IMG/VR virus record: IMGVR_UViG_3300037245_003639
Length of the DNA stretch: 64,000 bases
Source of the DNA: a virus
Strand: one strand, 5' to 3'
Under the pieces are notes generated by a model. It was given only the letters and a program-made list of their open reading frames with translations, was not told the DNA's origin and searched no databases. The position numbers were made by a program, and so were the translations under genes. Every line of letters begins with the position of its first letter. Position 1 is the first letter of the stretch. Below, piece by piece: positions 24,885 to 40,457 of the stretch.

Positions 24885-26645
24885 ATGCTAGTTGTGAAAA
24901 GTTATCAACTGAACAAAACAGCGGCCCTACCTGCTGATATTTCTTTGCCTCTGGATGGTAAAGAGGAGCAAATCTTCTCTTTTATCAGACGGGCCATAGG
25001 TTCTATGCCCAAAGCTCCTGTGGCTCGGGTCGCCGGGGGCTGGGTGCGTGATAAATTACTGGGAAAACCGTCGAAAGACATTGATATTACAGTCGAAGGA
25101 ACCACAGGAGTTGAATTTGCAAATGCTCTCAGACAATATGCCATCGAAACCCAAGGAACAAAACAGAACATAGTTAGTCGGGTCAAAGACACAGAAGCGC
25201 GTCCCGAGCAAATCAAGAACTTGGCTGTTGCATTCCTGCGTATCTTTGATCAGGATATGGAAATTCTTGATCTGCGAGCAATCGAGTTCTATGAGAAGGG
25301 CAATCGAAATCCCACTGTGATTCGTCTCGAAGAGTTGAAAGCCATTGCACAACAACAGGGAATTCCGAGTTTCGTCAAAGACAAAGCTCCCCATTTGTTA
25401 TCTGCCATTAGCAAATTACCACATGGTAACAGCAACCATCCCAATGAAGTTCTTAAAACCCTTGACGCTCATCGACGAGATCTTACGATAAACTCGCTTT
25501 TCTACAACATCAACACAACGGAGATTGAGGATTTTACAGGTGAGGGATATGACGATTTGCTGACAATGACATTGCGGACTCCTATTGAACCCGTGAAAAC
25601 TTTTCAAGATGACCCTTTGCGAGTTCTTAGGATTCTGCGTTTCCACAGTCGTTACCCGAATTCCAAGATAGCCCCCGAAATTATTCAAGCAATGGCAGAT
25701 GAAGAAGTACAACATCAGATTACTCGTCGTCTTATCAAAGCAGATGAAACCGCAGGCATCGTCCCTGAAAGGACTGCTGAGGAATTACGCAAGCTAATGA
25801 TGGGAGCCCAGCCCGAAGCCGCTCTGCGGGTGATGCATGAAACGGGCCTGCTCCAGAAGATGTTTAATCTGCCAAAGGAATTTCACCCTCTGAATATGGA
25901 CCAAATGAGTTCATATCACAGTCTATCGGTTATTGAGCATATTCTAAATGTAGTAAAGAATGTCAATAACCTAGCCCAGGAATTCAATCTGTCTGGCCAG
26001 GAGAGGATGTTTCTAAATCTGGCCTCTCTATTCCACGACCTTGGGAAACTTGATCCTCGATCACATAAAGCAAAACCAGATGGAACAAGAGGCTATTCAG
26101 GAAGTGAAGCTGATGATTCACTGACCCATGAGCAATCCAGCTCAGATATGTGGGAAAGATTCGCGAGGGCTCTGAGGCTCAGTGATAAAGAACGGACAAC
26201 CATCCAAGATGTTGTTTCGGGGCACATGCGTCCACATGCTCACTTCGAGAATGAGATGCAATCTGCATCGGATAGAACATTACGACGTTATATGCGTAAA
26301 AACCCCCTATGGAAGTTGCAATATATCCTTGCCATGGGTGATGCTATGTCCAAAGCAGATGAGCCCGAGCCGCAGGCAGCAGACCCATATCGAGCAACCT
26401 ATGAGTACATGCAATCCCCAGGTTTTACCCCTCCACCGAAAAGTACTGAAAGACCTTTAGTAGATGGGCATCGAATCATCGAATTGGTTGGAGCCCATCC
26501 AAAGTCAGGTTACATTGAAGATGTCAAAGAGGAAATCAATCGCCTCCGCGATGAGAATCCTGCCTTAACTATTCAAGAAGCAGAACAGTTTATTCTCCAA
26601 ATGAAGGCCGATGGAGCATTCGCCCATCTTCCTCCTCTCCGTTAG
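24885..26645 (+). CDS. cca: CCA-adding tRNA nucleotidyltransferase with HD domain
   Basis: GGWVRDKLLG...DIDITVEG head motif, RRDLTINSLFYN, DPLRVLRILRF, HD motif LFHDLGK. Confidence 0.85.
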   Translation: MLVVKSYQLNKTAALPADISLPLDGKEEQIFSFIRRAIGSMPKAPVARVAGGWVRDKLLGKPSKDIDITVEGTTGVEFANALRQYAIETQGTKQNIVSRVKDTEARPEQIKNLAVAFLRIFDQDMEILDLRAIEFYEKGNRNPTVIRLEELKAIAQQQGIPSFVKDKAPHLLSAISKLPHGNSNHPNEVLKTLDAHRRDLTINSLFYNINTTEIEDFTGEGYDDLLTMTLRTPIEPVKTFQDDPLRVLRILRFHSRYPNSKIAPEIIQAMADEEVQHQITRRLIKADETAGIVPERTAEELRKLMMGAQPEAALRVMHETGLLQKMFNLPKEFHPLNMDQMSSYHSLSVIEHILNVVKNVNNLAQEFNLSGQERMFLNLASLFHDLGKLDPRSHKAKPDGTRGYSGSEADDSLTHEQSSSDMWERFARALRLSDKERTTIQDVVSGHMRPHAHFENEMQSASDRTLRRYMRKNPLWKLQYILAMGDAMSKADEPEPQAADPYRATYEYMQSPGFTPPPKSTERPLVDGHRIIELVGAHPKSGYIEDVKEEINRLRDENPALTIQEAEQFILQMKADGAFAHLPPLR

Positions 26646-26678
26646 TGCGTATAATATCGCAGACAGGAGAATGAACAT

Positions 26679-27668
26679 ATGTTGTTTCTCAAACGTTTGC
26701 GGTTACAGAATTTCTGCAACTTCGAAGATCATACTTTCGATTTCATGAAAGCAGACGGATCGCCAGAGCGATTCGTCTGCTTCTATGGTCCTAATGGAAT
26801 CGGAAAAAGCACATTATTAGAAGCTATTAGCCTGTTGACCAGCGATCAGACGGGACGCCCAATATCTTATGTACGCAATTCATTACGCAAGTATGTCCGT
26901 AACCCAGACTATAACCCTTCCTATCAGAAGCTCATAGGACATACATACAAAAACCAGATTATCACAGGCAATGTAGAGAATGAACTTCCAGAAATGCAGA
27001 TTGAGGGGACATATGAATACGAAGGCAAAGATTATACGATTCTCATGAATCAGGACGGCTGGGTTCGTAATGAGTTTCTTAGTGGAGCCTCTGAAAGACA
27101 TGAGAAGCAAGGGCCTTGGTTTCAGAACGAACTAAAAATGCGGCGAAGAATTTCTCACTCCATCAAAACTGACTCCGACCTTTCATTGAACTCATTCCAG
27201 ATTCATTTCGCCTACCAAAAAGAGTTCGAGGAAATCGTTTCGACCGTGATGCGTTACCCTATCCAATGTATCCGGAGACCAGAGCTAAGTGATACCAAAG
27301 AAGATTTCTGCACAGATGTGGTATTGGTGAAAAATAAGCACCGTATTCATTTCAAACGCATGAGTGCCGGTGAGCGTAAAATCTTGAAGTCATTCAGCGA
27401 GGTTTTGAACCTCATGCACACTTTAGCCCACCCAAGGCCAGGTGATCCAGCTATGCCTGGTTGGCCAAAGCTGCTATTAATGGATAATCTCGTAATGCAC
27501 GTTTATTACGACCGACATGCGACAATGGTCGATTGCTTGAAGCGCGTTTTTAACGAACAACAGATATTCGCCACCACCCACAGTGGAACACTCATCAACC
27601 AGCAACTGGCAAAAGAGAATGACTGGGAGAATGAGCTTTGGTTTGATCTGGAAAAGATCAACTTATAG
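26679..27668 (+). CDS. ABC/SMC-type ATPase (AAA_21-like)
   Basis: LRLQNFCNF start, Walker A GPNGIGKST, signature-like SAGERK, Walker B LLLMDN (Asn in place of Glu), H-loop TTHSG. Confidence 0.65.
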   Translation: MLFLKRLRLQNFCNFEDHTFDFMKADGSPERFVCFYGPNGIGKSTLLEAISLLTSDQTGRPISYVRNSLRKYVRNPDYNPSYQKLIGHTYKNQIITGNVENELPEMQIEGTYEYEGKDYTILMNQDGWVRNEFLSGASERHEKQGPWFQNELKMRRRISHSIKTDSDLSLNSFQIHFAYQKEFEEIVSTVMRYPIQCIRRPELSDTKEDFCTDVVLVKNKHRIHFKRMSAGERKILKSFSEVLNLMHTLAHPRPGDPAMPGWPKLLLMDNLVMHVYYDRHATMVDCLKRVFNEQQIFATTHSGTLINQQLAKENDWENELWFDLEKINL

Positions 27669-28059
27669 GCGTGTCCTCACCGAACAGGTCAAAATCTTCG
27701 TCGATGATTGTTGGATTCAATAAATTCGATTCAAGAACTGATCTGGCAAGTTTCCACTGATCAAGACAATGCATACGCAAAGCTTCTCCGTCAGGCTCGT
27801 TTTGCAACTTGGCTGTACGCCCCAACTTCGTGCCCTCTAGAAATTGAGTTCGCATCGAAGCATCCAAATCGATGCTTTTGTGGACTATTTTGTCCCACAA
27901 TTGGACAATGCCCTGTAGAACTTCAGGTGGCATACTGTTAACCGCCATATTGTAAAGCAGAATACGATCAAGCATGCGCAGATATCCCTCTACGCGCTCT
28001 TGGTCCGTGTTTCGGATTTTAGTTTTGATTTGTTTTTCCATCTTAGGCTGGGTCTCCAA
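27658..28059 (-). CDS. hypothetical protein
   Basis: 133-aa ORF. Confidence 0.5.
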   Translation of the reverse strand: METQPKMEKQIKTKIRNTDQERVEGYLRMLDRILLYNMAVNSMPPEVLQGIVQLWDKIVHKSIDLDASMRTQFLEGTKLGRTAKLQNEPDGEALRMHCLDQWKLARSVLESNLLNPTIIDEDFDLFGEDTPIS

Positions 28060-28252
28060 GAGCAGCTACATATCCTGACCACCATATATCAGCCACTTCT
28101 TTGGTGATTGGTTGTTCTGCAACGAGGATAACTACTTCCTCTTGTGTTTGGTCAACGAGATACAGGCTCTTTATTATTCCACTGTTATCGGCATATTCCT
28201 GTAATATATTCAATACAGAGCGGACCTCGTTCTTGCAAATTATCGGCTTCAT
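28043..28252 (-). CDS. hypothetical small protein
   Basis: 69-aa ORF. Confidence 0.3.
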   Translation of the reverse strand: MKPIICKNEVRSVLNILQEYADNSGIIKSLYLVDQTQEEVVILVAEQPITKEVADIWWSGYVAALGDPA

Positions 28253-28255
28253 TAG

Positions 28256-28594
28256 CTACGCCTTCGCATATTGGATTTTTAGAAGCGCAGCCCGTTTTGC
28301 AAAGAGTTGAAACGAGAAAAAATTGCCTTCTCTGAAAATAATCCAGTGTAAGTCCGAAAAACCGTAGACAGAACCGATGTCCGGTTCTTCTGGTTCCACA
28401 TCACCCGATGCAAGAATTACTCTATCAGGTGTTTCCCAATTCATTTTGCCCTCGTATTTTTTCATCTTTCCGTTTGCCCAAACACGAAGATGAGTAATTT
28501 CTTTTTCAGTCACGGTGGCGGGGTTGAGAATCCATTTGGGCTCTCGTCTCTTGTTTATAACGTCTTCGGGCGGGGGTGGATCTACTTTGGCCAT
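28256..28594 (-). CDS. hypothetical protein
   Basis: 112-aa ORF. Confidence 0.45.
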   Translation of the reverse strand: MAKVDPPPPEDVINKRREPKWILNPATVTEKEITHLRVWANGKMKKYEGKMNWETPDRVILASGDVEPEEPDIGSVYGFSDLHWIIFREGNFFSFQLFAKRAALLKIQYAKA

Positions 28595-28655
28595 AATAAC
28601 CTCCAGGTCATTATACCTGCGTTTGAGTATAATGCACTGTAATCGGAGATGCTAT

Positions 28656-29090
28656 ATGCCAGCCTATGACTATGCTTGTAATAAGTGCGGATTAGTAAAT
28701 GAAATCCGCCACGGAATGACTGAAACCAAGAAATATAAATGCACGGAATGTGGGCATAAATACATGGAGAAGCAGATAAGCGCGACATTTCATGTGGCCC
28801 AGAGTTATCACGCTGGCCCAACCATGGCAGACCGCAAAGAAGGAGAACACACCAAAAGGGTTAAGGATTTAGACCGAGCTGTCAAAGCTCGTAAACGACA
28901 ATTCGGTTTTGACGCTGTCGGAACTCCAGTAGATACGCCAGACCCAAAACATATCGTGAAAAGGGGGCGCACTCTCGGCGGGCAGCAACTTGAAGTAGAC
29001 AAAACAGAATTTGTGAAGGCAGCAGCCAAAGACCCAGCTATGGTCAAAAAAGCTCAAGATGCACTAAAGAAGAGCAGAAGCAAAAAGTAA
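28656..29090 (+). CDS. FmdB-family zinc-ribbon protein with basic C-terminal tail
   Basis: MPAYDYACNKCG...CTECG pattern; GGAGAT SD; TATAAT at 28628-28633. Confidence 0.55.
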   Translation: MPAYDYACNKCGLVNEIRHGMTETKKYKCTECGHKYMEKQISATFHVAQSYHAGPTMADRKEGEHTKRVKDLDRAVKARKRQFGFDAVGTPVDTPDPKHIVKRGRTLGGQQLEVDKTEFVKAAAKDPAMVKKAQDALKKSRSKK

Positions 29091-29119
29091 ATTGGCTGAT
29101 CCCAATTGAGGACTTGTAA

Positions 29120-31057
29120 ATGAACAGGCCATATATTAATAAAAAAGTTACCGTTATTTTACCATGCAAAAACAGAGATCTGAGTTTGTATCAAGTTTTG
29201 CCTGCATGGTTTTGTCAGATAAAACATGCCCAAATTGTTATTGTGGATTACTCATCTCGTAGTTCTCTCTATAGTTTGGTGAAAGAGATTTGCAACCGAC
29301 ACAAAAAAACTCTGGCATACGATATGCCGCACTCCGATGCGGACTGTCTTATTCTCACGGTTAAAGATAAACAGTTCTTCAACATGAGCCATGCTATTAA
29401 TTACGCCATCACCAGAACCACATCAGACGTGATTTCGATTGCAGGATGTGAGAGCTTACCGACTCCTTACTATCTTGAGATAACGTGTAACCTGATCGAT
29501 CATTCCACTTTTACGAGATGCATTCGAGGGAGACTCACCTTTCCTCGACACCTGATAGAGCAAATTAATGGTTATCCCGAACTCATGGAATATTGGGGAG
29601 GGGAAGATGATATTGTAGCTTATCAGTTTACTCAACTTGGAGCCATGTGTATCGATCTTGATTATCTCTTGGCTCGTAATATGCAAACATCGGACTTCCA
29701 TAATCCTTTGCAAGGTTATGCCAATGAGGAACTAAATCTAAACAGGCAATACTCAGAACAAAATGATAACATTAAATACCGGAAAAACGATATAGCAAAA
29801 AAATTTGAAGGAGTAAAAAAGAACAGAAAAGCTTTCGCTCAATATTGCAAAGACTTCGGAGATGAAAAAACAAACAACTACGGGAAAGCCTATGGAGATG
29901 AGCTATCGGTACTGTTGACGCCTCAATCCCAGAAGATGGTGGTAGATGTACTCCCTGAAATCGCATGCCCACCTGTGGCCTCCCGATGCGTCGGCTCCAG
30001 ATGTGCAGTAATAATTCCTTGCATGAATAGATTAGAGAACCTTAAGGCAACTCTGCCTATGTGGTTATCTCAATTACACCAAAACAAACAAATCGTTATC
30101 ATTGATTATAACTCAAAAGTTCCAATTCTGCCACATGTCAAAGATATCTGTGAGGGATTCAAAATGTCTCTCGTTTATAACGAGTACGATGTTGACGCTG
30201 ATGTAGTAGTGTTCAGATTAGATGGCCAGGAACACTTTAATATATCACATGCGTATAACTATGTAGTCAAACGAATTAAAACAGAGGTTCTATCGTTCGC
30301 TTGTGCTGATACATGCCCAGTTGACTATTATCTTGATTTAGTGACCCATGCTGTCGATGAGAAATCAATAATTCAAACCTGGTGGGGGTTGCATACTATA
30401 ACCTATGAGAATTGGAAGAAACTAAATGGGCATCAAGAGTTTTTAGTGGGCTGGGGAGGAGAAGACAGCGACTTTATGGAAAGAGCCGTTTTGATGGGGC
30501 TTAGTTTTGTACATATACCCAAGAACTATTGCTTCCATATACCACAAACACCAGATGCTAAAGGGCAATACAGAGAAGTCAAGCAAATCGACCGTAGCAA
30601 TGCAATTAATATTGCTCGATTCAATCAATATCAGGCACTAAGGGGATATGTCGGAAATTACAAAGATAAAATCGGTGGAAACGAGCCTCTACCATATTTT
30701 GGAACAGAAGAAATACTCTATGTACTGCATGTTTTTGAATATCACGGTGAAGTAGATACGAGCAAATTGCCGCAACTCGCCAAACGAGGCAAAGAAGGTA
30801 TCTTCTACCTGGTTGTTGACGCTGTTGTTTCATTATCGCTTTTTTCAAAAGAAAAATGGCAGCAATGGCTAGATGCAGGTAAAGTAAAAGACCACATCAG
30901 CAAGATGATCCCTGATAACTCTGACATTACTGTTGACAAGTTTCTTTCAAATATTTACATTGAAATCGAAAATAAACATAAGAACCAAATACCTCAAGAT
31001 ACGGAAGAACTTCATGAAGCCAAAAGGCACAACCCTTTGCATAATAATGACGTATAA
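29120..31057 (+). CDS. tandem-duplicated GT-A fold glycosyltransferase (two GT2/GT7-like modules)
   Basis: two repeats of VIxPCxNR...IVIxDY...WGGED (WGGEDDIVAYQ and WGGEDSDFMERA). Confidence 0.65.
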   Translation: MNRPYINKKVTVILPCKNRDLSLYQVLPAWFCQIKHAQIVIVDYSSRSSLYSLVKEICNRHKKTLAYDMPHSDADCLILTVKDKQFFNMSHAINYAITRTTSDVISIAGCESLPTPYYLEITCNLIDHSTFTRCIRGRLTFPRHLIEQINGYPELMEYWGGEDDIVAYQFTQLGAMCIDLDYLLARNMQTSDFHNPLQGYANEELNLNRQYSEQNDNIKYRKNDIAKKFEGVKKNRKAFAQYCKDFGDEKTNNYGKAYGDELSVLLTPQSQKMVVDVLPEIACPPVASRCVGSRCAVIIPCMNRLENLKATLPMWLSQLHQNKQIVIIDYNSKVPILPHVKDICEGFKMSLVYNEYDVDADVVVFRLDGQEHFNISHAYNYVVKRIKTEVLSFACADTCPVDYYLDLVTHAVDEKSIIQTWWGLHTITYENWKKLNGHQEFLVGWGGEDSDFMERAVLMGLSFVHIPKNYCFHIPQTPDAKGQYREVKQIDRSNAINIARFNQYQALRGYVGNYKDKIGGNEPLPYFGTEEILYVLHVFEYHGEVDTSKLPQLAKRGKEGIFYLVVDAVVSLSLFSKEKWQQWLDAGKVKDHISKMIPDNSDITVDKFLSNIYIEIENKHKNQIPQDTEELHEAKRHNPLHNNDV

Positions 31058-34050: not shown

Positions 34051-34085
34051 CACGAAAAAACTTTCAGAAATAAGCAGGATTTCCC

Positions 34086-34113: not shown

Positions 34114-34119
34114 ACCTGC

Positions 34120-34283: not shown

Positions 34284-34300
34284 TTTAACTGGACGAAACC

Positions 34301-34801
34301 ATGAGCAATATGACGGGAAGATTTCTCTCTCAATGGGAGATGGCAGAAGCAAAACGGCATGAAGCCCGAGCAAATTCGATACAGAAGCGAGAAGGAACGA
34401 ACTTCCCGCTCAGCGGAATTATCGCTTGGGGATGTGGCTGTTGCATCGGCCCAAGCATACGGTATGACCAGCCGATTCTGTCGGCATCCGAGGCTGATGG
34501 AGTCTTGAAGCAGCGGAAGCATGAAGTGTTTGGGCATCGAATAGGATGGCTCGACTCAGCGAGAATGCCGTCCCGAGTCCATCGCACTATCGACTGCGGA
34601 GAAACGACCGTTTGCGGGCATGTTCCCGCTGATAACGATTGGATTCTGGCAGAAGTGCCTCGAAAGAATCATGGATACAGCCGGTATTGTCGGACCTGTT
34701 TTCAACAAGGCGGTAAAGCATTGCCTTGGCTGAGAAAAGCGGATGTGGCAGAGCGGATGTGGCGGGAGCAGATATGGCGGAACGGCAGACGCGATAGCTG
34801 A
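34301..34801 (+). CDS. hypothetical Cys/Trp/Arg-rich protein in GC-rich segment
   Basis: 166-aa ORF; internal GCGGATGTGGC tandem repeat; coding status uncertain. Confidence 0.35.
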   Translation: MSNMTGRFLSQWEMAEAKRHEARANSIQKREGTNFPLSGIIAWGCGCCIGPSIRYDQPILSASEADGVLKQRKHEVFGHRIGWLDSARMPSRVHRTIDCGETTVCGHVPADNDWILAEVPRKNHGYSRYCRTCFQQGGKALPWLRKADVAERMWREQIWRNGRRDS

Positions 34802-34808
34802 ATAAAAA

Positions 34809-34883
34809 GGCTGGATAGCCCAATTTGGCAGAGGCATACGGTTCAGAGCCGTAAAGTTATGGGTTCGACTCCCATTCCAGCCA
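34809..34883 (+). tRNA. tRNA, class I (5-nt variable loop), anticodon CAG (decodes Leu CUG)
   Basis: acceptor GGCTGGA/TCCAGCC, anticodon arm TACGG-TTCAGAG-CCGTA, T-arm ATGGG-TTCGACT-CCCAT, A73. Confidence 0.55.
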
Positions 34884-34945
34884 TTGCTAGGCTGCTCAGG
34901 GTGGAGCAGCGAGAGACTTGTTTCAAACTCTCCACCCACAGCTTT

Positions 34946-35018
34946 GCCAAGGTGGCCCAACGGCAGAGGCGTCCGTCTCAAAAGCGGAATGTTGTGGGTT
35001 CGACTCCCACTCTTGGCA
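34946..35018 (+). tRNA. tRNA, class I, anticodon CAA (decodes Leu UUG)
   Basis: acceptor GCCAAGG/TCTTGGC, anticodon arm TCCGT-CTCAAAA-GCGGA, T-arm GTGGG-TTCGACT-CCCAC, A73. Confidence 0.55.
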
Positions 35019-35030
35019 TTGAAAATTAAA

Positions 35031-35104
35031 GCCCAGGTAGCCCAATTGGCAGCGGCTCGTGGTTTAGGTCCACGGAGTTGGGGGTTCGAATCCCTCCCTG
35101 GGTA
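35031..35104 (+). tRNA. tRNA, class I, anticodon UAG (decodes Leu CUA)
   Basis: acceptor GCCCAGG/CCTGGGT, anticodon arm CGTGG-TTTAGGT-CCACG, T-loop TTCGAAT, A73. Confidence 0.55.
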
Positions 35105-35233
35105 TTTAGTCATATTGGACAGGAGCGCAACTACTGTCCATGATTGAGCATAAGTGGCATTGCGTAGGTGCTTATGCAAATGACTAGACCGAGGGTGCAT
35201 TGCACTAATCACTCTAGAGGCTCCTCGGCCGAA

Positions 35234-35307
35234 GCGGCGGTAGCCCAATGGCAGCAGGCACAGCACTTAAAATGCTGACAGTGCGGGTTCGAATCCCGCC
35301 CGCCGTA
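35234..35307 (+). tRNA. tRNA, class I, anticodon UAA (decodes Leu UUA)
   Basis: acceptor GCGGCGG/CCGCCGT, anticodon arm CAGCA-CTTAAAA-TGCTG, T-arm GCGGG-TTCGAAT-CCCGC, A73. Confidence 0.55.
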
Positions 35308-35593
35308 TTGGAGAAAATCATGACTCACTAGAACCGGAAAAACCGAAGATCAGTTTTCATGCAGATTGCGTGTTCCATTGTGGTAAAGATGATATACACC
35401 ATTACTGGCAGGAACCCGGAGCACCATTGGGTGAAAAACAAACTTGGCGAGTAGTCTGTGAGCATGGAACAGTTAGAGGCGCCTTTGAAAACGAACTCGT
35501 GGCAGAAATATTTGCCGCATCGATGAATTGGGCATATACCCACGGAGTTTGGAATCGCCCCTAACAACACTGTTCTCTGATAAATGAATAAAC

Positions 35594-35676
35594 GTGGACG
35601 TGGTGAAATGGCAGACACGCCAGCTTGAGGGGCTGGTCCGGGCAACCGGGTGGAGGTTCGACTCCTCTCGTCCGCA
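35594..35676 (+). tRNA. tRNA-Leu (GAG), canonical class II with long variable arm
   Basis: anticodon arm CCAGC-TTGAGGG-GCTGG, variable arm CCGG-GCAA-CCGG, T-arm GGAGG-TTCGACT-CCTCT, A73. Confidence 0.7.
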
Positions 35677-35687
35677 TTGTGACCCCT

Positions 35688-35706
35688 CCTGAGATAGTAT
35701 CTCAGG
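35688..35706 (+). other. perfect 9-bp hairpin (CCTGAGATA-G-TATCTCAGG) after tRNA-Leu; likely processing or termination signal
   Basis: seen directly. Confidence 0.4.
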
Positions 35707-35753
35707 ATCGACGCTTGACAGCGTTTCGGGTGTGTGGTAACATACACCCACTT

Positions 35754-35835
35754 GGGTGAGTTGAGCAATTGGCTGCTCAGCGGGCTGTAAACCCGCCGTC
35801 GTGAGGCATTGTGGGTTCGAATCCCTCCTCACCCA
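35754..35835 (+). tRNA. tRNA-Tyr (GUA), class II
   Basis: acceptor GGGTGAG/CTCACCC, anticodon arm GCGGG-CTGTAAA-CCCGC, long variable region, T-loop TTCGAAT; preceded by hairpin GGGTGTGT-GGTAAC-ATACACCC. Confidence 0.65.
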
Positions 35836-35879
35836 TTCCAGGTATAATCCACATGGAGTAAACCATGCTGGAGTAACCA

Positions 35880-36644
35880 ATGGCTAAGTTTCCAGATTTC
35901 GTTGTAGTCGGACAAACGAAAACCTGTACCACTTCCTTATGGTACAACCTCGATAATCATCCCGACATCACTATGTGTTCTCAGGAGAATGATTCTGAAA
36001 TCCTTACGGGAACAGAGATTACGTTTTGGGGAAGCCGTAATTTTGGCAAAGGGATCGAATGGTATAAGTCATTGTTTCAAGGAAAGGTCGCAGGAGAGAA
36101 AAGCCCAGGTTATATAAACAGGGCACAATGTTTCAAACAAATGTCTCGACATATGCCTGACGTAAAGTTGGTTCTTTGCATCCGCAATCCTGTGGATAGA
36201 GCATATTCTCAGTTTCAGATGAGACAACGCAGGAACCCTGTTACAAAAGCTCCTAGCTATCAAGAATTAGAACAGTCGTCAGAGAAAGGTCGATACTATA
36301 CGCTAATCACAAATAACGTCTTGCCTTACTTCCCTAGGGGGCAGTTGCACCTATGCGTTGCCGAGTGGATGCGTCATGACCCGAATGCTGAAATACAGAA
36401 GGTTTACGATTTTTTGGGCATCGGACACCATTCTCTTCCAAATGTAAGATTGGAATCTTCAATCGCTCATGGCAAAGGGAAACCCAAGGTAGAAGTAAAA
36501 CGGTCTGACGATTATAAAGAGTGGCATAATGAATATCCAAAGCTTCCGGCCCGCATGAGAGCGAAGTTACTGAAACTCTTTGAGAAGGACAATAACAGAT
36601 TGTTCAGTTTTCTAGGTTATGAGATTCCAGAATGGAGCAAATAA
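35880..36644 (+). CDS. sulfotransferase (PAPS-dependent, Sulfotransfer_1/3-like)
   Basis: 5'-PSB-like VVVGQTKTCTTSLW and 3'-PB-like CIRNPVDRAYSQF; TATAAT and GGAG upstream. Confidence 0.7.
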   Translation: MAKFPDFVVVGQTKTCTTSLWYNLDNHPDITMCSQENDSEILTGTEITFWGSRNFGKGIEWYKSLFQGKVAGEKSPGYINRAQCFKQMSRHMPDVKLVLCIRNPVDRAYSQFQMRQRRNPVTKAPSYQELEQSSEKGRYYTLITNNVLPYFPRGQLHLCVAEWMRHDPNAEIQKVYDFLGIGHHSLPNVRLESSIAHGKGKPKVEVKRSDDYKEWHNEYPKLPARMRAKLLKLFEKDNNRLFSFLGYEIPEWSK

Positions 36645-36699
36645 AGTGCGTAAAAGCAAGTTTCGGGTGTGTGGTAACATACACCCATCTGGGTGAGTT

Positions 36700-36780
36700 G
36701 GGCAGGTGGTGTGCCCAGTAGGCTGTAAACCTACCGTTTCGGCATTGGTGGTTCGATTCCACTCTCACCCATTCCTAGTG
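36700..36780 (+). tRNA. tRNA-Tyr (GUA), second diverged copy
   Basis: acceptor GGGTGAG/CTCACCC, anticodon arm GTAGG-CTGTAAA-CCTAC, T-arm GGTGG-TTCGATT-CCACT; same upstream hairpin motif. Confidence 0.65.
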
Positions 36781-36850
36781 TGATTTAACGTAAGTGGATC
36801 ACCTTGGGTGTCCAGCGAATAGTCGCTAAGACATTTATTAGGAAAACAGA

Positions 36851-37111
36851 ATGAAAGAAATTTCTGAAGAACAAGTTGAGTTTGTAAAATGCTCAGGCCG
36901 AAGTGGTTTCTCAATCAGGAGAGCCCTGATTGAAGTGGAAAAATCGGTTGTGGAATGGTGGAAAATGTACTATCATTCAGGTAATGGGCCTGGTGTCTCT
37001 GGGAGTTGTGACTTCGTTGCTCATGCCCCAACAAGAGAACTGGCTCTTGAGCAAGCTCGCAAAATAAAGAATGGGCCATACACCCATTTGTTTCTCAAAC
37101 TGGAGAGCTGA
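36851..37111 (+). CDS. hypothetical protein
   Basis: 86-aa ORF. Confidence 0.4.
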   Translation: MKEISEEQVEFVKCSGRSGFSIRRALIEVEKSVVEWWKMYYHSGNGPGVSGSCDFVAHAPTRELALEQARKIKNGPYTHLFLKLES

Positions 37112-37116
37112 AACCA

Positions 37117-37429
37117 TGCGTAAAAGCAAGAACATTAAACAACTGAAGGTGAAAGCTGCCAATGAGTATCGCAAGGGCAACAGGAAGGAGGCTTACAAAT
37201 TGTGGGAAAAAGCCCGAATTGAACGACTTATTCAACAAGAGAAGATGTAATGAGGTGGACTGGTACCAAACAATCGAGAATCCGTTGGCGACGAGCAGTT
37301 AGAAATCATCGAACAGAGCTTCAAGATAAACGTGATTCCTTTCATCGCTCAAAGGCAAAATCAGGGCATCGATATGTCGAGGAACTTATCTGGCCGTTAG
37401 CCTTACGGCCTAAAAAAAGACTTCGTTAG
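37117..37429 (+). other. two very basic small ORFs (44 aa and 59 aa)
   Basis: MRKSKNIKQLKVKAANEYRKGNRKEAYKLWEKARIERLIQQEKM (37117..37251) and MRWTGTKQSRIRWRRAVRNHRTELQDKRDSFHRSKAKSGHRYVEELIWPLALRPKKRLR (37250..37429); below ORF-track cutoff. Confidence 0.2.
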
Positions 37430-37496
37430 GTCATCCAGCGGCTCTGGACCTGGGTCTCCAAAACCCGGAGGATCGGCTCGACCCCGATATGGCCTG
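37428..37496 (+). tRNA. tRNA-like element, anticodon-loop CCA (Trp-like) with compact non-canonical D-arm
   Basis: acceptor AGGTCAT/ATGGCCT, anticodon arm TGGGT-CTCCAAA-ACCCG, T-arm ATCGG-CTCGACC-CCGAT; only 69 nt, D region 16 nt. Confidence 0.3.
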
Positions 37497-37535
37497 TTGA
37501 GAGGATGCGGCCTAGCAGTAATTGCTTACATACTC

Positions 37536-37620
37536 TTTATGTGGGTTCGAGTCCCATCATTGCAGAGATTCTGCGATGTAGCCTAACTGGCAAAGGCAAC
37601 TGTCTGCAAAACAGTGAAGT
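37536..37620 (+). tRNA. split/circularly permuted tRNA-like locus: 3' half (T-arm + acceptor 3' strand + G73) followed 6 nt later by 5' half (acceptor 5' strand, D-arm, anticodon arm with GCA)
   Basis: 3' half TTATGTGGGTTCGAGTCCCATCATTGCAG almost identical to 3' half of tRNA at 34809; 5' half TGCGATG-TA-GCCTAACTGGCAAAGGC-A-ACTGT-CTGCAAA-ACAGT; acceptor halves complementary (7/7 with G-U). Confidence 0.4.
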
Positions 37621-37660
37621 GAGAAAACAGCAATGCAAACTTTCGCATCCTTCTCTTTTT

Positions 37661-37731
37661 GAGCGCGTACCCAAGTGGCTAGGGAGCGGATTGCAAACCC
37701 GCCTACGTCGGTTCGACTCCGACCGTGCTCT
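37661..37731 (+). tRNA. tRNA-Cys (GCA)
   Basis: acceptor GAGCGCG/CGTGCTC, anticodon loop TTGCAAA, T-arm GTCGG-TTCGACT-CCGAC, U73 discriminator typical of Cys. Confidence 0.65.
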
Positions 37732-37735
37732 TGTT

Positions 37736-37809
37736 GGGGCCGTGGTGCAATTGGTTAGCACATCTGCCTGTCACGCAGAAGGTTGCCGGTTCGAGTCCGG
37801 TCGGTCTCG
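37736..37809 (+). tRNA. tRNA-Asp (GUC)
   Basis: acceptor GGGGCCG/CGGTCTC, anticodon arm TCTGC-CTGTCAC-GCAGA, T-arm GCCGG-TTCGAGT-CCGGT, G73. Confidence 0.7.
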
Positions 37810-37812
37810 TTT

Positions 37813-37887
37813 GGGCTATTGGAAGAGTCTGGAGTCTTCGCCTGCTTGTCACGCAGGAGATCACGAGTTCAAATCTCGTATAGCCCG
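37813..37887 (+). tRNA. tRNA-Asp (GUC), second diverged copy
   Basis: acceptor GGGCTAT/ATAGCCC, D-stem GAAG/CTTC, anticodon arm CCTGC-TTGTCAC-GCAGG, T-arm ACGAG-TTCAAAT-CTCGT, G73. Confidence 0.65.
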
Positions 37888-37890
37888 TTT

Positions 37891-37984
37891 GCCACAGTAG
37901 TTTAAGGACTAAGGCAAAACGTCGAGCCCGTCTTCTTAATAGAGCGGGTGCTCGATCATGCGAGTTCGAGTCTCGTCTGTGGCT
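37891..37984 (+). tRNA. 94-nt tRNA-like element with canonical acceptor and T-arm but atypical body (long bulged hairpin with 14-nt loop); identity unassigned
   Basis: acceptor GCCACAG/CTGTGGC, T-arm GCGAG-TTCGAGT-CTCGT; internal hairpin TCGAGCCCG-(TCTTCTTAATAGAG)-CGGGTGCTCGA. Confidence 0.35.
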
Positions 37985-38003
37985 AATTTCAGTATAATGA
38001 GAC

Positions 38004-38738
38004 ATGAAAGCCTTCACGCTCACTGAGCTTCTTGTTGTTCTATTCATCATCATTCTGATATTAGGCATCGCTATTCCAAGTTTTCCAGCCATGATGCGGG
38101 AAGCTCGCGTTGCGGGCGCTTATACCACCATCAGCAGCATCTTACAGCAAGCCAAAATCCTCTCTCAAATTGAACATAATGTCATGGCAGTCAGGATTAT
38201 GCCTGCTGAGTGGGCCATTGACGAAAAAACAGCCAGAGACAGGCAATGTCTTGTCATCTATCGTTGGGTTTGTTCAACTGATGATAAAGAGAGCGGAGAC
38301 CTCAATAGAGTTGTTTTCCATGAACATCTCGAAAGATATCCTGGAATCGATATTGCACTTTTGCCGACAGGTGTCTGGGCTGCCCCTCTCAAAGCCACAA
38401 GTGATTTCAAGATCTTAGAGGGGGATATCGGGGAGTTTTTCAATGATCCTAATGAACCTGATTTCTTCAATGCGGACGATTTTCTAATCGTCTTTTTCAA
38501 AGGCAGAGAGTTAGTTGGTCGCCCTTATCATTTAGAACTTTGGGAATACGATCCTGTGGCTGGATATGATCAGTTCTTTCATAGAAACCGTTACAAGGGA
38601 GTAGTGATTTATTCCCGAGAGCCGGTGTTGGATGTCGCCAGGCATGAGGACGCTCTGACTAGACAAGAGATTCTGATTCGATTAGGGCGTCGATACTTTG
38701 TGGATTTCAATACGGGCACATTGTTGCCAGCCCATTAA
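38004..38738 (+). CDS. prepilin-type N-terminal domain protein (type IV pilin / pseudopilin-like)
   Basis: N-terminus MKAFTLTELLVVLFIIILILGIAIP matches prepilin cleavage/methylation motif; TATAAT upstream. Confidence 0.6.
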   Translation: MKAFTLTELLVVLFIIILILGIAIPSFPAMMREARVAGAYTTISSILQQAKILSQIEHNVMAVRIMPAEWAIDEKTARDRQCLVIYRWVCSTDDKESGDLNRVVFHEHLERYPGIDIALLPTGVWAAPLKATSDFKILEGDIGEFFNDPNEPDFFNADDFLIVFFKGRELVGRPYHLELWEYDPVAGYDQFFHRNRYKGVVIYSREPVLDVARHEDALTRQEILIRLGRRYFVDFNTGTLLPAH

Positions 38739-38852
38739 AGTGATTTTGGCGCCGATTCGATGAAACATTCAAGGACAAACAGTCGATGAAAGATAACTGA
38801 ATATTGGCTATGGTTCTTCCAGATACAGAATCGGCATTATTTTTCATCAAGG

Positions 38853-39053
38853 ATGGGAGGAATCATGAAAGCCAAACATGTCATCAAGAGATTGTACGGC
38901 CTTTACAAGGAAGGCGAAAACGAGGACGCTGAACTACAAATCAAAGTCAAAGAAGATGACCTCATAGGGAAGATCTATCTCCCTATCAATCCCAAGGATA
39001 TTAAAATCGAGACCATCGACGATATTACGGTTATTATTATCGACCTTTCGTAA
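38853..39053 (+). CDS. hypothetical small protein
   Basis: 66-aa ORF with GGAGG SD. Confidence 0.4.
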   Translation: MGGIMKAKHVIKRLYGLYKEGENEDAELQIKVKEDDLIGKIYLPINPKDIKIETIDDITVIIIDLS

Positions 39054-39076
39054 ATTTCGTTTAGCCGTCCAGGTAG

Positions 39077-39277
39077 GTGTTGTATAATTTATACATGAAC
39101 CTCAAACAGGCCAAACAGTTCATTACAGAACTGATATTAGAAGATATCCAAGAGGCATTTGATAACCAGGATAAACCAAATATCAAATTGCATTTAGGAG
39201 ACCAAAATGAATCTGACGGAATTCCTATGGAGCCTATTCATTGTTGTACAGTTGTGGCCTTGAAAGAACTGTTCTGA
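39077..39277 (+). CDS. hypothetical small protein
   Basis: 66-aa ORF. Confidence 0.35.
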   Translation: MLYNLYMNLKQAKQFITELILEDIQEAFDNQDKPNIKLHLGDQNESDGIPMEPIHCCTVVALKELF

Positions 39278-40171
39278 ATGCAATCGATTCTACGCTATCC
39301 TGGAGGCAAGACTAAGCGCAAAGTGCGTAGTCTAATTCTAAGTCATGCTCCTCACGGCTATCAAGAATATAGAGAACCTTTCGTCGGTGGTGGAGGTGTC
39401 TTTTTCTCAATCGGAGATGATCATAAACGCTGGATAAACGATCTAAATGAGGGGCTTGTCGATGTCTATCTGGCTCTACGAGACAGACCTGACGAGTTTA
39501 TCAAACGCTGCAAATCCGTGCAGCCGAGACAACCGGGGGAGCCCGATGTCTATCCGACTGCAAACAGTTCAGGAAAGAAATACAACAAACGTTTGAAAGA
39601 ACAGTTTGATGATCTGAAATTCAATAACGATGAGGATCAGGCTTTTCGTTATTTCTTTATCAACAGAACTGTCTGGGCGGGTCGAGTAGATTATGAACGC
39701 AAGTCCCGCTTATATTTCTCTAATCCCGAAGGATGGGATATCGTTGCCACTCAACGAATCGAAGCGGCTGCTGAACATCTCCGGAATGTCAAAGTCACTT
39801 GTGGGGATTATGAGAATTTACTCTTAGCACCAGGCAAGAATGTCTGGGTTTACTGCGATCCTCCATATATGCGCGATACGAAACTGTCAGCCACAGACAA
39901 ACTGTATGCTCATGGCTTTACCATGCAAGACCATGAAAGATTTGCGTATTTGGCCCGTAAGTCAGAGCACAAACTGTGCATTAGTTATGATGACGATCCA
40001 AAGGTGAGACAGCTATTCAAAGGATTTACGATCATTCCTCAACAATGGGTTTATTGTGGAACCTCCAACGAAGAGAAAAAGATAGGCCAGGAACTACTGA
40101 TTTTGAATTACCCAGTTCCTGCTGGGGCCATCAAAACGAAACATAAACCAAAGAAAATGGCTCAATATTAA
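39278..40171 (+). CDS. dam: DNA N6-adenine methyltransferase (Dam-like, D12 class)
   Basis: YPGGK start, FxGxG motif FVGGGGVFF, catalytic DPPY. Confidence 0.8.
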   Translation: MQSILRYPGGKTKRKVRSLILSHAPHGYQEYREPFVGGGGVFFSIGDDHKRWINDLNEGLVDVYLALRDRPDEFIKRCKSVQPRQPGEPDVYPTANSSGKKYNKRLKEQFDDLKFNNDEDQAFRYFFINRTVWAGRVDYERKSRLYFSNPEGWDIVATQRIEAAAEHLRNVKVTCGDYENLLLAPGKNVWVYCDPPYMRDTKLSATDKLYAHGFTMQDHERFAYLARKSEHKLCISYDDDPKVRQLFKGFTIIPQQWVYCGTSNEEKKIGQELLILNYPVPAGAIKTKHKPKKMAQY

Positions 40172-40174
40172 GTA

Positions 40175-40204
40175 TTGACACTGATGCTCGGAATGGAGTA
40201 TAAT
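40175..40204 (+). promoter_or_regulatory. consensus sigma70 promoter TTGACA-18-TATAAT
   Basis: read directly; predicted start ~40211 coincides with P1 5' strand. Confidence 0.65.
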
Positions 40205-40210
40205 TCGTCT

Positions 40211-40457
40211 ATCTGGGCTTCCGGCTCGTCGCTGCGGTCAGGAGTTTGACTGGTCGTAGAGGAAAGTCGGGACTGCACCGCTTAAGGTGGAAGACGAAAG
40301 TCGCTTGTACCACTGAGGCAGCAACACAAATTGTCCTAGGTGGTGAGCGGGCCAATGATGGACTGGTTGTGGCACCCTTAATAGGGCGCGGCTCTAAGGG
40401 TCGTGAGATGAATGGCGAGCTAAAACAGAATCCCGCTTATTGGAAGCCCAGATACTT
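40211..40457 (+). ncRNA. rnpB: candidate RNase P RNA (compact, ~247 nt)
   Basis: P1 ATCTGGGCTTCC (40211-22) pairs exactly with GGAAGCCCAGAT (40442-53); P4 5' strand AGAGGAAAGTCGGGACT; P4 3' strand ACAGAATCCCGCTTATTGG resembling bacterial ACAGAAcCCGGCUUAUCGG, with the bulge expected in P4. Confidence 0.6.

Follow-up and report, generated by a model that had tools for sequence, protein, structure and literature searches.

RNase P removes the 5' leaders of precursor tRNAs by endonucleolytic cleavage and acts in vivo with the protein RnpA. In bacterial type A RNase P RNA the specificity domain (P7–P14) docks the T/D-loop elbow of the tRNA, and the GGU of L15 pairs with the 3' RCCA of the substrate. 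Phage T4 relies on the CCA enzyme of its host. Its tRNA genes lie close together and do not encode CCA, their precursors are processed by host RNase P, and the Pro-Ser precursor, made without CCA, is preferred by RNase P once CCA has been added (PMC11143913). The catalytic domain of the E. coli RNA alone is catalytic whether or not C5 protein is present and needs a P6-like interaction; RNase P RNAs consisting only of this domain are much less efficient in vitro (PMC5839562).

Here we describe a 64-kb stretch of viral DNA (64,000 nucleotides, hereafter the window) that is part of a 403-kb contig. A single plus-strand block of the window carries a tRNA array lacking CCA, a class II nucleotidyltransferase gene and a 243-nt RNase P RNA (Table 1). 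The contig is probably, we infer, that of a huge phage with a Planctomycetota/Verrucomicrobiota-type host. The most interesting point, which the first-pass annotation of this DNA missed, is that the RNase P RNA appears to be a natural minimal variant and a member of a wider, unannotated phage family. We found no published description of such a phage RNA in the literature.

Table 1. Features of the window and elements of the small RNA. Positions marked RNA are numbered within the small RNA, with 40213 as 1.
Feature	Position	Strand	Details
Class II tRNA nucleotidyltransferase (CCA-adding type), probable C-terminal HD domain	24885..26645	+	586 aa; Pfam, PHROG, NCBIfam, PDB, motifs
tRNA-Leu(CAG)	34809..34883	+	75 nt, class I length, 5-nt variable loop, A73, no CCA; ARAGORN; Rfam 56 bits
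tRNA-Leu(CAA)	34946..35018	+	73 nt, class I length, A73, no CCA; ARAGORN; Rfam 56.4 bits
tRNA-Leu(UAG)	35031..35104	+	74 nt, class I length, A73, no CCA; ARAGORN; Rfam 52.4 bits
tRNA-Leu(UAA)	35234..35307	+	74 nt, class I length, A73, no CCA; ARAGORN; Rfam 61.2 bits
tRNA-Leu(GAG)	35594..35676	+	83 nt, long variable arm (class II), no CCA; ARAGORN; Rfam 47.1 bits
Promoter-like site TTGACA-17-TAACAT with TG	35715..35743	+	10 nt upstream of first tRNA-Tyr
tRNA-Tyr(GUA), first	35754..35835	+	class II, no CCA; ARAGORN; Rfam 51.2 bits
tRNA-Tyr(GUA), second	36691..36771	+	no CCA; ARAGORN; Rfam 49.5 bits
tRNA-like element, weak, probably decayed	37572..37638	+	Rfam 31.1 bits; one of several, about 37430-37640
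tRNA-Cys(GCA)	37661..37731	+	U73, no CCA; 4 nt to next tRNA; ARAGORN; Rfam 51.6 bits
tRNA-Asp(GUC), first	37736..37809	+	no CCA; 3-nt spacer to next tRNA; ARAGORN; Rfam 66.1 bits
tRNA-Asp(GUC), second	37813..37887	+	no CCA; ARAGORN; Rfam 56.3 bits
tRNA-like gene	37891..37984	+	94 nt; ARAGORN only (Leu-GAG); normal acceptor stem and T arm, ~20 extra nt mid-gene
Consensus sigma-70-type promoter TTGACA-18-TATAAT	40175..40204	+	12/12 matches; ends 9 nt before small RNA
Predicted mini type A RNase P RNA	40213..40455	+	243 nt; RF00010, orthologues, covariation, RNAalifold, fold z-score
P1	RNA 1-10/230-239	+	
P2	RNA 12-18/202-208	+	
P3	RNA 21-29/38-46	+	
P4	RNA 52-59/220-226	+	
P5	RNA 61-64/106-109	+	
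P6	RNA 67-72/132-137	+	strand after P5 with loop of P17
Stub stem in place of P7-P14	RNA 74-78/98-102, hairpin 81-90	+	
P15	RNA 113-116/156-159	+	
L15 GGU	RNA 153-155	+	UGGU 152-155
P16	RNA 121-124/148-151	+	
P17	RNA 127-129/139-141	+	
Two hairpins at P18 position	RNA 163-174 and 175-193	+	

The candidate miniature RNase P RNA

At the Rfam gathering score for RNase P RNA (100 bits) the window contains no match. In E-value mode, RF00010 aligns to the 243 nt from 40213 on the plus strand with 71.5 bits (E 1e-20), covering model positions 1-367. In place of the specificity domain there is a 29-nt stem-loop, which is why the RNA falls below the Rfam threshold: where the model has ~140 positions for P7–P14, the RNA has 37 nt, stem-loop included. 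Of the Rfam families in the RNase P clan, bacterial type A fits best. The two P4 strands, GAGGAAAGUC and ACAGAAUCCCGCUUA, are invariant, the second reading ACAGAA..GCUUA, and J5/15 (GCAAC) and J18/2 (AGAUGAAUG) are kept. RNAalifold recovers P1–P3 independently and the fold z-score is -3.5. This RNA is genuinely homologous to bacterial type A RNase P RNA and comprises the catalytic domain alone (P1–P6, P15–P17). The candidate placed at 40.2 kb by the first-pass annotation is thus real, and its truncated form had gone unnoticed.

The structure of the RNA is under purifying selection. Orthologues on related contigs (L016, L017/L018, L020 and L024) occupy the same site, in the order Dam, RNA, (DUF2061), RNase H, DnaJ, NDK, and each lies behind a promoter, TTGACAC-(15-17)-GTATAAT, that is kept at all orthologous loci. 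Across five orthologues 97% of cells are paired and 23 of 72 pairs have changed on both sides; slid controls give 2-3. An alignment of 14 window-type sequences has 95.5% of cells paired, and both partners have changed in 62 of its 73 pairs; its covariation score is 0.64, compared with at most 0.10 for slid alignments, and none of 500 shuffles scored as high. Covarying pairs are found throughout P1 (10/10), P2 (6/7), P3 (7/9) and P5 (4/4). The P4 and P6 pseudoknots, which lie outside the model used to align these 14 sequences, behave similarly: P4 pairs in 99% of cells with five of its seven pairs covarying, and P6 in 98.8% with three of six pairs changed on both sides (UA in eight sequences and CG in six at one of them). 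The L15 GGU is present in 14/14 aligned relatives, the ten-residue catalytic motifs are invariant, and the reduced architecture persists down to 43% DnaJ identity.

One relative departs from this pattern. L019, the closest by DnaJ (76%), has kept the promoter, which there drives RNase H directly, and has no small RNA at the orthologous site, so the RNA is either dispensable in this relative or located elsewhere in it. The window RNA is followed by no terminator.

About 20 further contigs, viral or metagenomic, carry similar RNAs of 190-254 nt in their tRNA arrays or next to them. Homologues occur on ~18 IMG/VR viral contigs. They are also present, unannotated, in cultured Microbacterium phages with complete genomes; in one of these, A3Wally, the match (locus 2521-2741) fills all of the 216 nt left unannotated between two tRNA genes. 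At nine loci (L001, L003, L009, L010, L011, L014, L035, L036 and L040) the RNA sits inside or beside a same-strand tRNA array with a flanking tRNA no more than 65 nt away on one side or, at six of the nine, on both. RF00010 scores of the relatives range from 28 to 136 bits, with only L003 and L005 above threshold; L009, a distant member, scores best against the archaeal RNase P model. The two small hairpins at the P18 position of the window RNA are missing from some relatives. In an assembly of Achromobacter anxifer that includes a large contig of 487 kb, one such RNA lies inside a 32-tRNA array and looks like an accessory copy. The arrays of L001, L010, L011 and L014 encode CCA and those of the window lineage, L003 and L009 do not; a link between these RNAs and a CCA enzyme is therefore not general.

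The tRNA array and the nucleotidyltransferase

ARAGORN identifies 11 tRNA genes between 34809 and 37984, all on the plus strand, in keeping with the ten or more annotated at 34.8-38.0 kb. Ten of them score 47-66 bits in Rfam against a threshold of 29, and by covariance score these are not pseudogenes. Together they comprise a complete set for decoding Leu, two Tyr, one Cys and two Asp genes. The earlier claim that 3' CCA is not encoded holds for all 11: each gene ends at the discriminator, which is followed by TTG, TTT, TTC, TGT or AAT. A single flagged CCA was rejected, as it consists of acceptor-stem GCC and discriminator A. The tRNA-Leu(UAA) gene is 87% identical to the 74-nt tRNA-Leu of Cronobacter phage S13. 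A sulfotransferase gene (35880-36644) sits between the two tRNA-Tyr genes, and upstream of the second is a copy of the -10 region and leader of the first. Two elements are doubtful as functional tRNA genes. The 94-nt ARAGORN call has no Rfam match, and relatives carry a long "tRNA-Cys" in its place; in the stretch corresponding to the weak tRNA-like element, the L016 array has an intact tRNA-Trp between tRNA-Tyr and tRNA-Cys.

The assignment of a CCA-type nucleotidyltransferase was likewise borne out, with a probable HD domain. The 586-aa translation matches the PolyA_pol head (PF01743, 1e-20), the PolyA_pol_RNAbd profile that forms the RNA-binding neck (PF12627, 9e-9), the HD domain (PF01966, E 4e-5, 24.2 bits against a cutoff of 22) and PHROG 2244, tRNA nucleotidyltransferase (9e-40). 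Its HD dipeptide lies within FHDLGK; only some homologues receive a Pfam HD call. The multifunctional E. coli enzyme has an HD phosphohydrolase domain. The head reads GGWVRD...KDIDIT with the catalytic Asp pair intact, and the segment containing this DxD, GGWVRDKLLGKPSKDIDIT, aligns to S. pombe Cca2. Motifs B (RRD) and D ((E/D)DxxR), which serve nucleotide selection in class II tRNA nucleotidyltransferases, are present as RRDLTINSLFYN and DDPLRVLRILRF. Compared with S. pombe Cca, the protein has a 48-aa insertion directly before motif B, near the flexible-loop region. Alternative specificities in such enzymes are the addition of CC only, of A only or of poly(A). The top NCBIfam matches are CCA tRNA nucleotidyltransferases, all under their equivalog cutoffs, and the top PDB matches are eukaryote-type CCA enzymes (9ns4, 3e-42). 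From these best family and structural matches we classify the protein as a CCA-adding-type class II nucleotidyltransferase with predicted C-C-A specificity. A homologue is encoded, together with one of the small RNA, on the L016 contig.

The first-pass annotation had proposed that the enzyme, the tRNAs and the RNase P RNA form a co-located set that could make tRNA maturation independent of the host. They do share one strand within 15.6 kb, but are co-located only loosely, with glycosyltransferase, sulfotransferase and methylase genes between them. A CCA-adding activity is required by genes that lack CCA, as the annotation argued; bacteria, however, generally possess a CCA-adding enzyme, so the phage enzyme itself is not specifically necessary. 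Host independence was overstated: the specificity domain is gone, RnpA was not found in the 64-kb window of the 403-kb contig by Pfam scans of ~70 ORFs, motif search and tblastn, and neither a 3' trailer nuclease nor an aminoacyl-tRNA synthetase was found in the window. A functional link between the three components is nonetheless plausible, since the L15 GGU, which pairs with substrate 3' CCA, is kept while the tRNA genes lack CCA.

Proposed function and alternative explanations

We favor, with moderate confidence, a model in which the RNA is the core of a pared-down phage RNase P, one that uses RnpA taken from the host and acts in concert with CCA addition by the phage. The RNA would be transcribed from the promoter at 40175-40204, fold into the P1–P6/P15–P17 core and recruit host RnpA, its assumed protein partner, and the resulting enzyme would cleave the 5' leaders of phage pre-tRNAs. 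As it lacks a specificity domain for the tRNA elbow, recognition would depend mainly on the acceptor stem, on the leader (via the protein) and on pairing of the L15 GGU with 3' RCCA. Because each tRNA gene stops at its discriminator and a U-rich trailer follows, trailer removal must come first; a host nuclease would carry it out, and the phage enzyme would then add CCA, which would complete the tRNA and also create a handle for the small RNase P. This proposed order of steps is that of the T4 Pro-Ser precursor. Hosts already own a full RNase P, which counts against this model.

An unlikely alternative, though the one that fares best, is that the RNA mainly binds the host RNase P protein, either sequestering it from full-length host RNA or forming a holoenzyme biased toward the phage; maturation of host tRNAs would then be throttled and phage tRNAs favored. 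Retention of the entire protein-contacting core (P2, P3, P4, J18/2 and J2/4) with loss of the domain that binds the tRNA elbow fits this explanation, as do the very strong consensus promoter and the lack of a visible phage rnpA in the window. Yet a pure sponge needs none of the catalytic-core nucleotides, L15 GGU or P6 that are also conserved and covarying, and the presence of such RNAs inside tRNA arrays suggests a role in processing.

We consider it distinctly improbable that the contig is instead cellular, either the reduced genome of a bacterium or symbiont or else a megaplasmid, with the RNA as its own streamlined rnpB. No phage hallmark gene (capsid, terminase or portal) was identified within the 64-kb window, most of its ORFs have no PHROG match, and DnaJ, NDK, PurN-like and CoaBC-like genes are present. 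Against a cellular origin, the window consists mostly of ORFans, along with PhoH, a LAGLIDADG endonuclease, Dam and the tRNA array, and Pfam scans of its ORFs found no ribosomal or other core cellular genes. Relatives carry genes for phage lysozyme, for giant fibre proteins of collagen-like type and for additional sigma factors, homologous RNAs are carried by viral contigs and complete cultured Microbacterium phage genomes, and the A. anxifer copy appears accessory.

Little credence can be given to a non-tRNA target, such as the co-transcribed downstream DUF2061-RNase H-DnaJ-NDK mRNA or other phage transcripts. Bacterial RNase P does cleave some mRNAs and phage RNAs (PMC11143913), and the lack of a terminator after the RNA, like the L019 promoter that drives RNase H, would suit this idea; however, other family members are lodged between tRNAs with no mRNA context, and the L15 GGU is conserved. 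Finally, that the RNA is a decaying relic, a host rnpB once captured, now without its S-domain and no longer functional, is very unlikely, despite its sub-threshold Rfam score and its absence from the nearest relative, given the compensatory pairs across 14 lineages (62/73), the conserved promoter, the invariant catalytic motifs and the same reduced architecture in distant relatives.

Comparison with known systems

CCA-adding enzymes of jumbo and huge phages (PMC7824862, PMC7162821; PHROG 2244) are likewise class II and have been read as serving tRNA repair or maturation; the window enzyme differs in being closest in the PDB to the eukaryote type, in its insertion and in sharing only 26% identity with its nearest GenBank phage homologue. 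The window array resembles that of T4 in its close spacing and missing CCA, but T4 precursors depend on host RNase P (PMC11143913), whereas here both the RNase P RNA and the CCA activity appear to be phage-encoded. The Theta (HDV-like) ribozymes (PMC10879173) set a precedent for phage ribozymes that adjoin tRNA genes and are implicated in tRNA processing, although they are small, self-cleaving in cis and of unrelated fold, and the window RNA is a predicted trans-acting RNase P homologue.

With E. coli M1 RNA and the RF00010 type A model, the window RNA has the catalytic domain in common (P1–P6, P15 with the L15 GGU, P16, P17, the P4 strands, J5/15 and J18/2). It differs in size, at 243 nt against 367 model positions, with the 29-nt stem-loop in place of P7–P14, and in that the genes of these small RNAs lie in phages or mobile tRNA arrays and are not chromosomal housekeeping genes. 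The archaeal type T RNase P RNA of Pyrobaculum and relatives (PMC13462272) is also natural, has nearly no specificity domain and measures ~200 nt. Its core, however, is archaeal and works with Pop5/Rpp30 and L7Ae, while that of the window RNA is bacterial type A by best Rfam match; the loss of the S-domain described here is independent of the type T loss, and not cellular. The engineered Eco CP RPR (PMC5839562) is likewise a type A catalytic domain without its S-domain and needs a P6-like pairing, and the window RNA keeps a covarying P6. Eco CP RPR is the product of laboratory deletions and has reduced efficiency, whereas the phage RNAs appear to constitute a naturally selected and diversified family with a stub helix.

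A shortened RNase P RNA between Dam and RNase H

No RNase P RNA was reported in the window at the Rfam gathering threshold; in E-value mode, RF00010 matches 40213-40455 (+) with 71.5 bits (E 1e-20), a homologue that bears out the RNase P RNA candidate placed at 40.2 kb by the first-pass annotation. It lies between the genes for a Dam methylase (39278-40171) and an RNase H (40671-41141) and covers model positions 1-367 with just 243 nt. P1, P2, P3 and P15/P16 with the GGU of L15 are kept in the alignment, the two strands of P4 read GAGGAAAGUC and ACAGAAUCCCGCUUA, and the conserved joining segments are GCAAC (J5/15) and AGAUGAAUG (J18/2); the specificity domain (P7-P14), about 140 model positions, is reduced to 37 nt. 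To judge from its sequence, this is a catalytic-domain-only RNase P RNA (hereafter mini RNase P RNA) that has kept every part on which its catalytic centre and the bacterial protein subunit depend. The hairpins at the usual site of P18 are missing in the smallest relatives (L028, L038 and L039).

Promoter and predicted structural elements of the mini RNase P RNA. Promoter positions are those of the window; all others number the RNA from 40213 (= 1), and the secondary structure was drawn by analogy with type A RNase P.
Element	5' part	3' part	Strand	Remark
Promoter	40175-40204		+	consensus TTGACA-18-TATAAT, 12/12, upstream of the RNA
P1	1-10	230-239		
P2	12-18	202-208		
P3	21-29	38-46		
P4	52-59	220-226		
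P5	61-64	106-109		
P6	67-72	132-137		
Stub helix	74-78	98-102		replaces P7-P14
Small hairpin	81-90			within the stub
P15	113-116	156-159		
P16	121-124	148-151		
P17	127-129	139-141		
L15 GGU	153-155			
First hairpin	163-174			usual P18 site
Second hairpin	175-193			usual P18 site

Homologues of the neighbouring DnaJ led us from the source contig of the window (403,172 bp) to the syntenic contigs L016, L017/L018, L020 and L024. Each has the gene order Dam, a gap of about 280-300 nt, DUF2061, RNase H, DnaJ and NDK (DUF2061 was called in L016 and L024 only), and in each gap lies an RNA orthologue of 236-245 nt, preceded by the same TTGACAC-(15-17)-GTATAAT promoter. In five orthologues, 97% of cells are paired and 23 of 72 pairs have changed on both sides, compared with 2-3 in slid controls. 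RNAalifold independently recovered P1, P2, P3 and three hairpins; the alternative that it offered, CCAC (98-101) paired with the P17 region, was dropped for the stub helix, which has a true G-C to A-U compensation. A covariance model built from the five orthologues and searched against all fetched loci gave full-length matches at 30 places, 14 of which we class as window-type (199-255 nt, more than 115 bits). These 14 sequences have 95.5% of cells paired, changes on both sides of 62 of 73 pairs, and a covariation score of 0.64 against at most 0.10 when slid; the P4 and P6 pseudoknots are among the covarying elements, though absent from the aligning model. Because of this covariation we set aside the hypothesis that the RNA is a relic, a decayed and non-functional rnpB. 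The nearest relative by DnaJ (76% identity), L019 (ena:ERZ27316532 k141_1591348), has kept the TTGACAC...GTATAAT promoter, which at positions 1-180 runs straight into RNase H; neither DUF2061 nor the RNase P RNA is present.

Source genome and wider family

Judged from the window's genes, the phage genes of its relatives, a Planctomycetota-like DnaJ and a pilin-like N-terminus of Verrucomicrobia type, the window very probably derives from a huge phage of a PVC-group host. It encodes PhoH, a LAGLIDADG endonuclease, Dam, RNase H, DnaJ, NDK and several glycosyl- and sulfotransferases alongside its tRNA array, and the majority of its ORFs are orphans. Pfam scans of the ORFs gave no core cellular genes, PHROG and Pfam scans gave no recognisable capsid, terminase or portal genes, and a 438-aa ORF has no tblastn match among GenBank phages. 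The contigs of relatives reach 580 kb; among their products are phage lysozyme, additional sigma factors, RNA ligases, RNase T, RRF and giant proteins of collagen-like type. The closest named cellular relatives of the window DnaJ are Planctomycetota, and ORF 38004-38738 (+) has a type IV pilin-like N-terminus of Verrucomicrobia type (Verru_Chthon cassette protein D). ORF 1341-2456 (-) encodes an actin-like protein with a match to the 'Volactin' family (9e-69), and the two ORFs together, an unusual cargo, hint at a PVC-group host. A related huge-phage-like contig (L021) encodes RRF, RNA 2'-phosphotransferase and RNase T, and has a group I intron (397-595; Rfam 80 bits, above threshold) adjoining its tRNA genes.

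Scanning public collections with DNA patterns of the invariant motifs at shortened spacing uncovered mini RNase P RNAs on 18 viral contigs in IMG/VR (12-340 kb), on several metagenome contigs and, within a 32-tRNA array, in Achromobacter anxifer. Their Rfam scores range from 28 to 136 bits, with just two above threshold, and in all of them the P4 5' strand lies 112-154 nt from J18/2, a distance of about 270 nt in full-size type A RNAs. A pattern with a longer gap (151-181) gave no matches, nor did scans of IMG/VR in which the DnaJ and CCA proteins served as queries. At nine loci (L001, L003, L009, L010, L011, L014, L035, L036 and L040) the RNA sits in or next to a same-strand tRNA array, with a flanking tRNA at most 65 nt away on one side or, at six of these loci, on both. 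Among 50,697 GenBank phage records, blastn matched four cultured Microbacterium foliorum phages of about 192-195 kb, including A3Wally, Big4 and Zooman. The A3Wally copy (MZ150783.1, about 93852-94072; Rfam 72 bits, E 6e-22) spans all of the unannotated 216-nt gap that separates tRNA genes 162 and 163. These matches, in tRNA arrays and in cultured phages, establish the phenomenon as viral, recurrent and experimentally accessible. The Big4 and Zooman copies are 89-92% identical to that of A3Wally, which also has an RNA ligase gene downstream of its tRNA array.

Several matches call for comment. The Achromobacter anxifer locus (L014; LMG 26857, NZ_CAHLAR010000005.1) packs 32 tRNA genes, 29 with encoded CCA, into 8 kb, with a 224-nt mini RNase P RNA mid-array (6076-6299); presumably this is a prophage, or else a mobile tRNA array, carried by the bacterial genome. 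At 7795-8010 of L001 (IMGVR_UViG_3300040801_001572; Rfam just 28 bits) the RNA seemingly lacks P1 and P3, and its P2 3' strand GACGGUU pairs with AACCGUC 3' of GCUUA and not with an upstream strand, a pattern consistent with circular permutation of the RNA. Locus L008, left out of the count for an assembly gap of NN, is matched by the covariance model (59.7 bits, 232 nt) and may be a real family member. Two metagenome pattern matches of identical sequence (L007 and L013), without GCUUA and P1/P2, were rejected as chance. In 'Acinetobacter phage MD-2021a' and in a Salmonella record, blastn matched the host's own rnpB beside prophages rather than phage genes.

The tRNA genes and the CCA enzyme

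ARAGORN called 11 tRNA genes (34809-37984, all +): Leu-CAG, Leu-CAA, Leu-UAG, Leu-UAA, Leu-GAG, two Tyr-GUA, Cys-GCA, two Asp-GUC and an odd 94-nt call. Ten score 47-66 bits against an Rfam threshold of 29, in keeping with the earlier count of at least ten, and Rfam adds a weak match at 37572-37638 (31 bits). As had also been claimed, reading the sequence gives an encoded 3' CCA in none of the 11; the discriminator is followed by TTG, TTT, TTC, TGT or AAT, and the lone 'CCA' flagged by script is acceptor-stem GCC plus discriminator A. UU directly follows the discriminator in 9 of the 11 (3' flanks, 34884-37990) and could be a 3' processing signal, for instance for RNase Z. In CCA-less systems, a U after the discriminator favours RNase Z.

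All six Leu codons are used in the window genes (13-23% each). Four of the five Leu isoacceptors (34809-35307) have a class I shape, with lengths of 73-75 nt and a variable loop of 5 nt, yet keep A73 and a Leu-like D arm. The orthologous Leu genes of the syntenic contigs L016 (1760-2616) and L020 (1894-2542) mix short (74-77 nt) with long (83-93 nt) forms, so this lineage seems to be part-way through losing the long variable arm of its tRNA-Leu. Because the anticodons of the four short window genes are reverse complements of CUG, UUG, CUA and UUA, we considered whether these are minus-strand Gln or suppressor tRNAs, a reading rejected on account of the canonical T-loop (GGTTCGA) and high covariance scores on the + strand. 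Short Leu tRNAs also occur in the L001, L010, L011, L014 and A3Wally arrays, each of which also has a mini RNase P RNA.

Elsewhere in the array, a directly repeated stretch of some 45 nt (GTTTCGGGTGTGTGGTAACATACACCCA..; 35700-35760 and 36655-36700) precedes both tRNA-Tyr copies; a TTGACA -35 box is present at the first copy only, and the two copies are split by the insertion of a sulfotransferase gene (35880-36644). Decayed tRNA-like elements follow in series at 37430-37640; one (about 37432-37505) looks like a Trp(CCA) tRNA whose anticodon stem has 6 bp, and L016 has an intact tRNA-Trp at the matching stretch, between tRNA-Tyr and tRNA-Cys. A sub-threshold match to YrlA (Y RNA-like) falls at 37521-37626. 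Spacers of just 3-4 nt separate Cys, Asp, Asp and the 94-nt element (37891-37984), which has a good acceptor stem and T arm, and about 20 extra nt as an extended central arm with UCUUAAU in its loop; the ARAGORN label is Leu-GAG, Rfam makes no call here, and its position in relatives is taken by an unusually long 'tRNA-Cys' of 78-83 nt.

ORF 24885-26645 (586 aa) matches the PolyA_pol head, the RNA-binding neck and, weakly, the HD domain, as well as PHROG 2244 (tRNA nucleotidyltransferase). CCA tRNA nucleotidyltransferases take its top NCBIfam ranks, with every equivalog cutoff missed, and its top PDB matches are eukaryote-type CCA enzymes. The translation contains the catalytic KDIDIT, RRDLTINSLFYN, DDPLRVLRILRF and FHDLGK, and has a 48-aa insertion immediately N-terminal of motif B relative to S. 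pombe Cca2. Neither pseudogene tRNAs nor loss of the catalytic Asp pair, the two findings that the first-pass annotation named as refuting its reading, is seen: the tRNAs score above threshold and the pair is present in KDIDIT. Phage-encoded CCA enzymes are already known (PMC7824862, PMC7162821). The next gene 3' (26679-27668, +) codes for an AAA ATPase of SMC/RecF-like type that weakly matches PtuA, a retron effector ATPase.

Dependence on the host and known counterparts

Motif search, tblastn and Pfam scans found no RnpA in the window, and we therefore make the economical assumption that the mini RNase P RNA uses host RnpA. (A weak tblastn match to E. coli RnpA in L005, another of the loci compared, overlaps a 607-aa ORF on the opposite strand and was rejected.) The L15 GGU, which pairs with the 3' RCCA of the substrate, is kept in the window RNA and the domain that recognises the tRNA elbow is lost; the window tRNA genes have U-rich trailers and no CCA. 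A host nuclease would trim the 3' trailer, the phage enzyme would add CCA, and mini RNase P would then cut the 5' leader with CCA as its main RNA-RNA handle. This order is plausible, and the same one is documented for the T4 Pro-Ser precursor, itself CCA-less (PMC11143913). Among arrays with mini RNAs, CCA is encoded in L001, L010, L011 and L014 and not in the window lineage, L003 and L009, and the link to CCA-less tRNAs and CCA addition is not universal. Because of this, and because the RNA is missing in L019, the earlier proposal that the toolkit could work independently of the host is unsupported; the lack of RnpA in the window likewise speaks against it. On the evidence of this window, the host still supplies trimming, the protein cofactor and aminoacylation.

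A bolder reading, which we consider unlikely, is that several unrelated phage lineages independently domesticated bacterial RNase P and pared it to its catalytic domain, yielding a virus-specific enzyme that privileges phage tRNAs. Such an enzyme would capture host RnpA or act without protein and choose substrates through the 3' CCA and the leader instead of the tRNA elbow; phage tRNAs, including the short-armed Leu tRNAs, would be privileged over host tRNAs during infection, with the co-encoded CCA enzyme as a licensing step. If true, this would be the first RNase P from a virus, and host takeover would gain a new layer at the level of tRNA maturation.

RNase P RNA is regarded as a universal cellular housekeeping ribozyme. 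We found no mention of a phage- or virus-encoded one in full-text literature, jumbo-phage reviews, the Al-Shayeb huge-phage paper and a 2024 RNase P review, sources that mostly exclude subscription journals, and an earlier description may exist. Since most copies score under the Rfam threshold, mini RNAs are systematically missed in phage annotation, including complete GenBank genomes. If they are active, the translation-related repertoire of viruses reaches tRNA 5' maturation, and nature has repeatedly made catalytic-domain-only RNase P RNAs of about 190-254 nt, material for the old questions of what the specificity domain is for and how small the ribozyme can be. Active compact RNase P ribozymes from tRNA arrays would also be attractive parts for making tRNAs in cell-free systems and for processing guide-RNA arrays. 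Since the Microbacterium phages can be cultured, genetics and biochemistry are possible at once.

The window RNA shares the core of type A RNase P RNA but departs from it in the S-domain and in Rfam score. Archaeal type T RNAs (PMC13462272) have undergone an analogous, independent loss of the S-domain, and theta ribozymes (PMC10879173) are a precedent for phage ribozymes beside tRNAs. The laboratory counterparts are engineered C-domain constructs: the E. coli C-domain by itself is catalytic, with and without C5 protein, and P6-like pairing matters for its activity, whereas P18 does not (PMC5839562). The parts kept and lost in the window RNA match these experiments.
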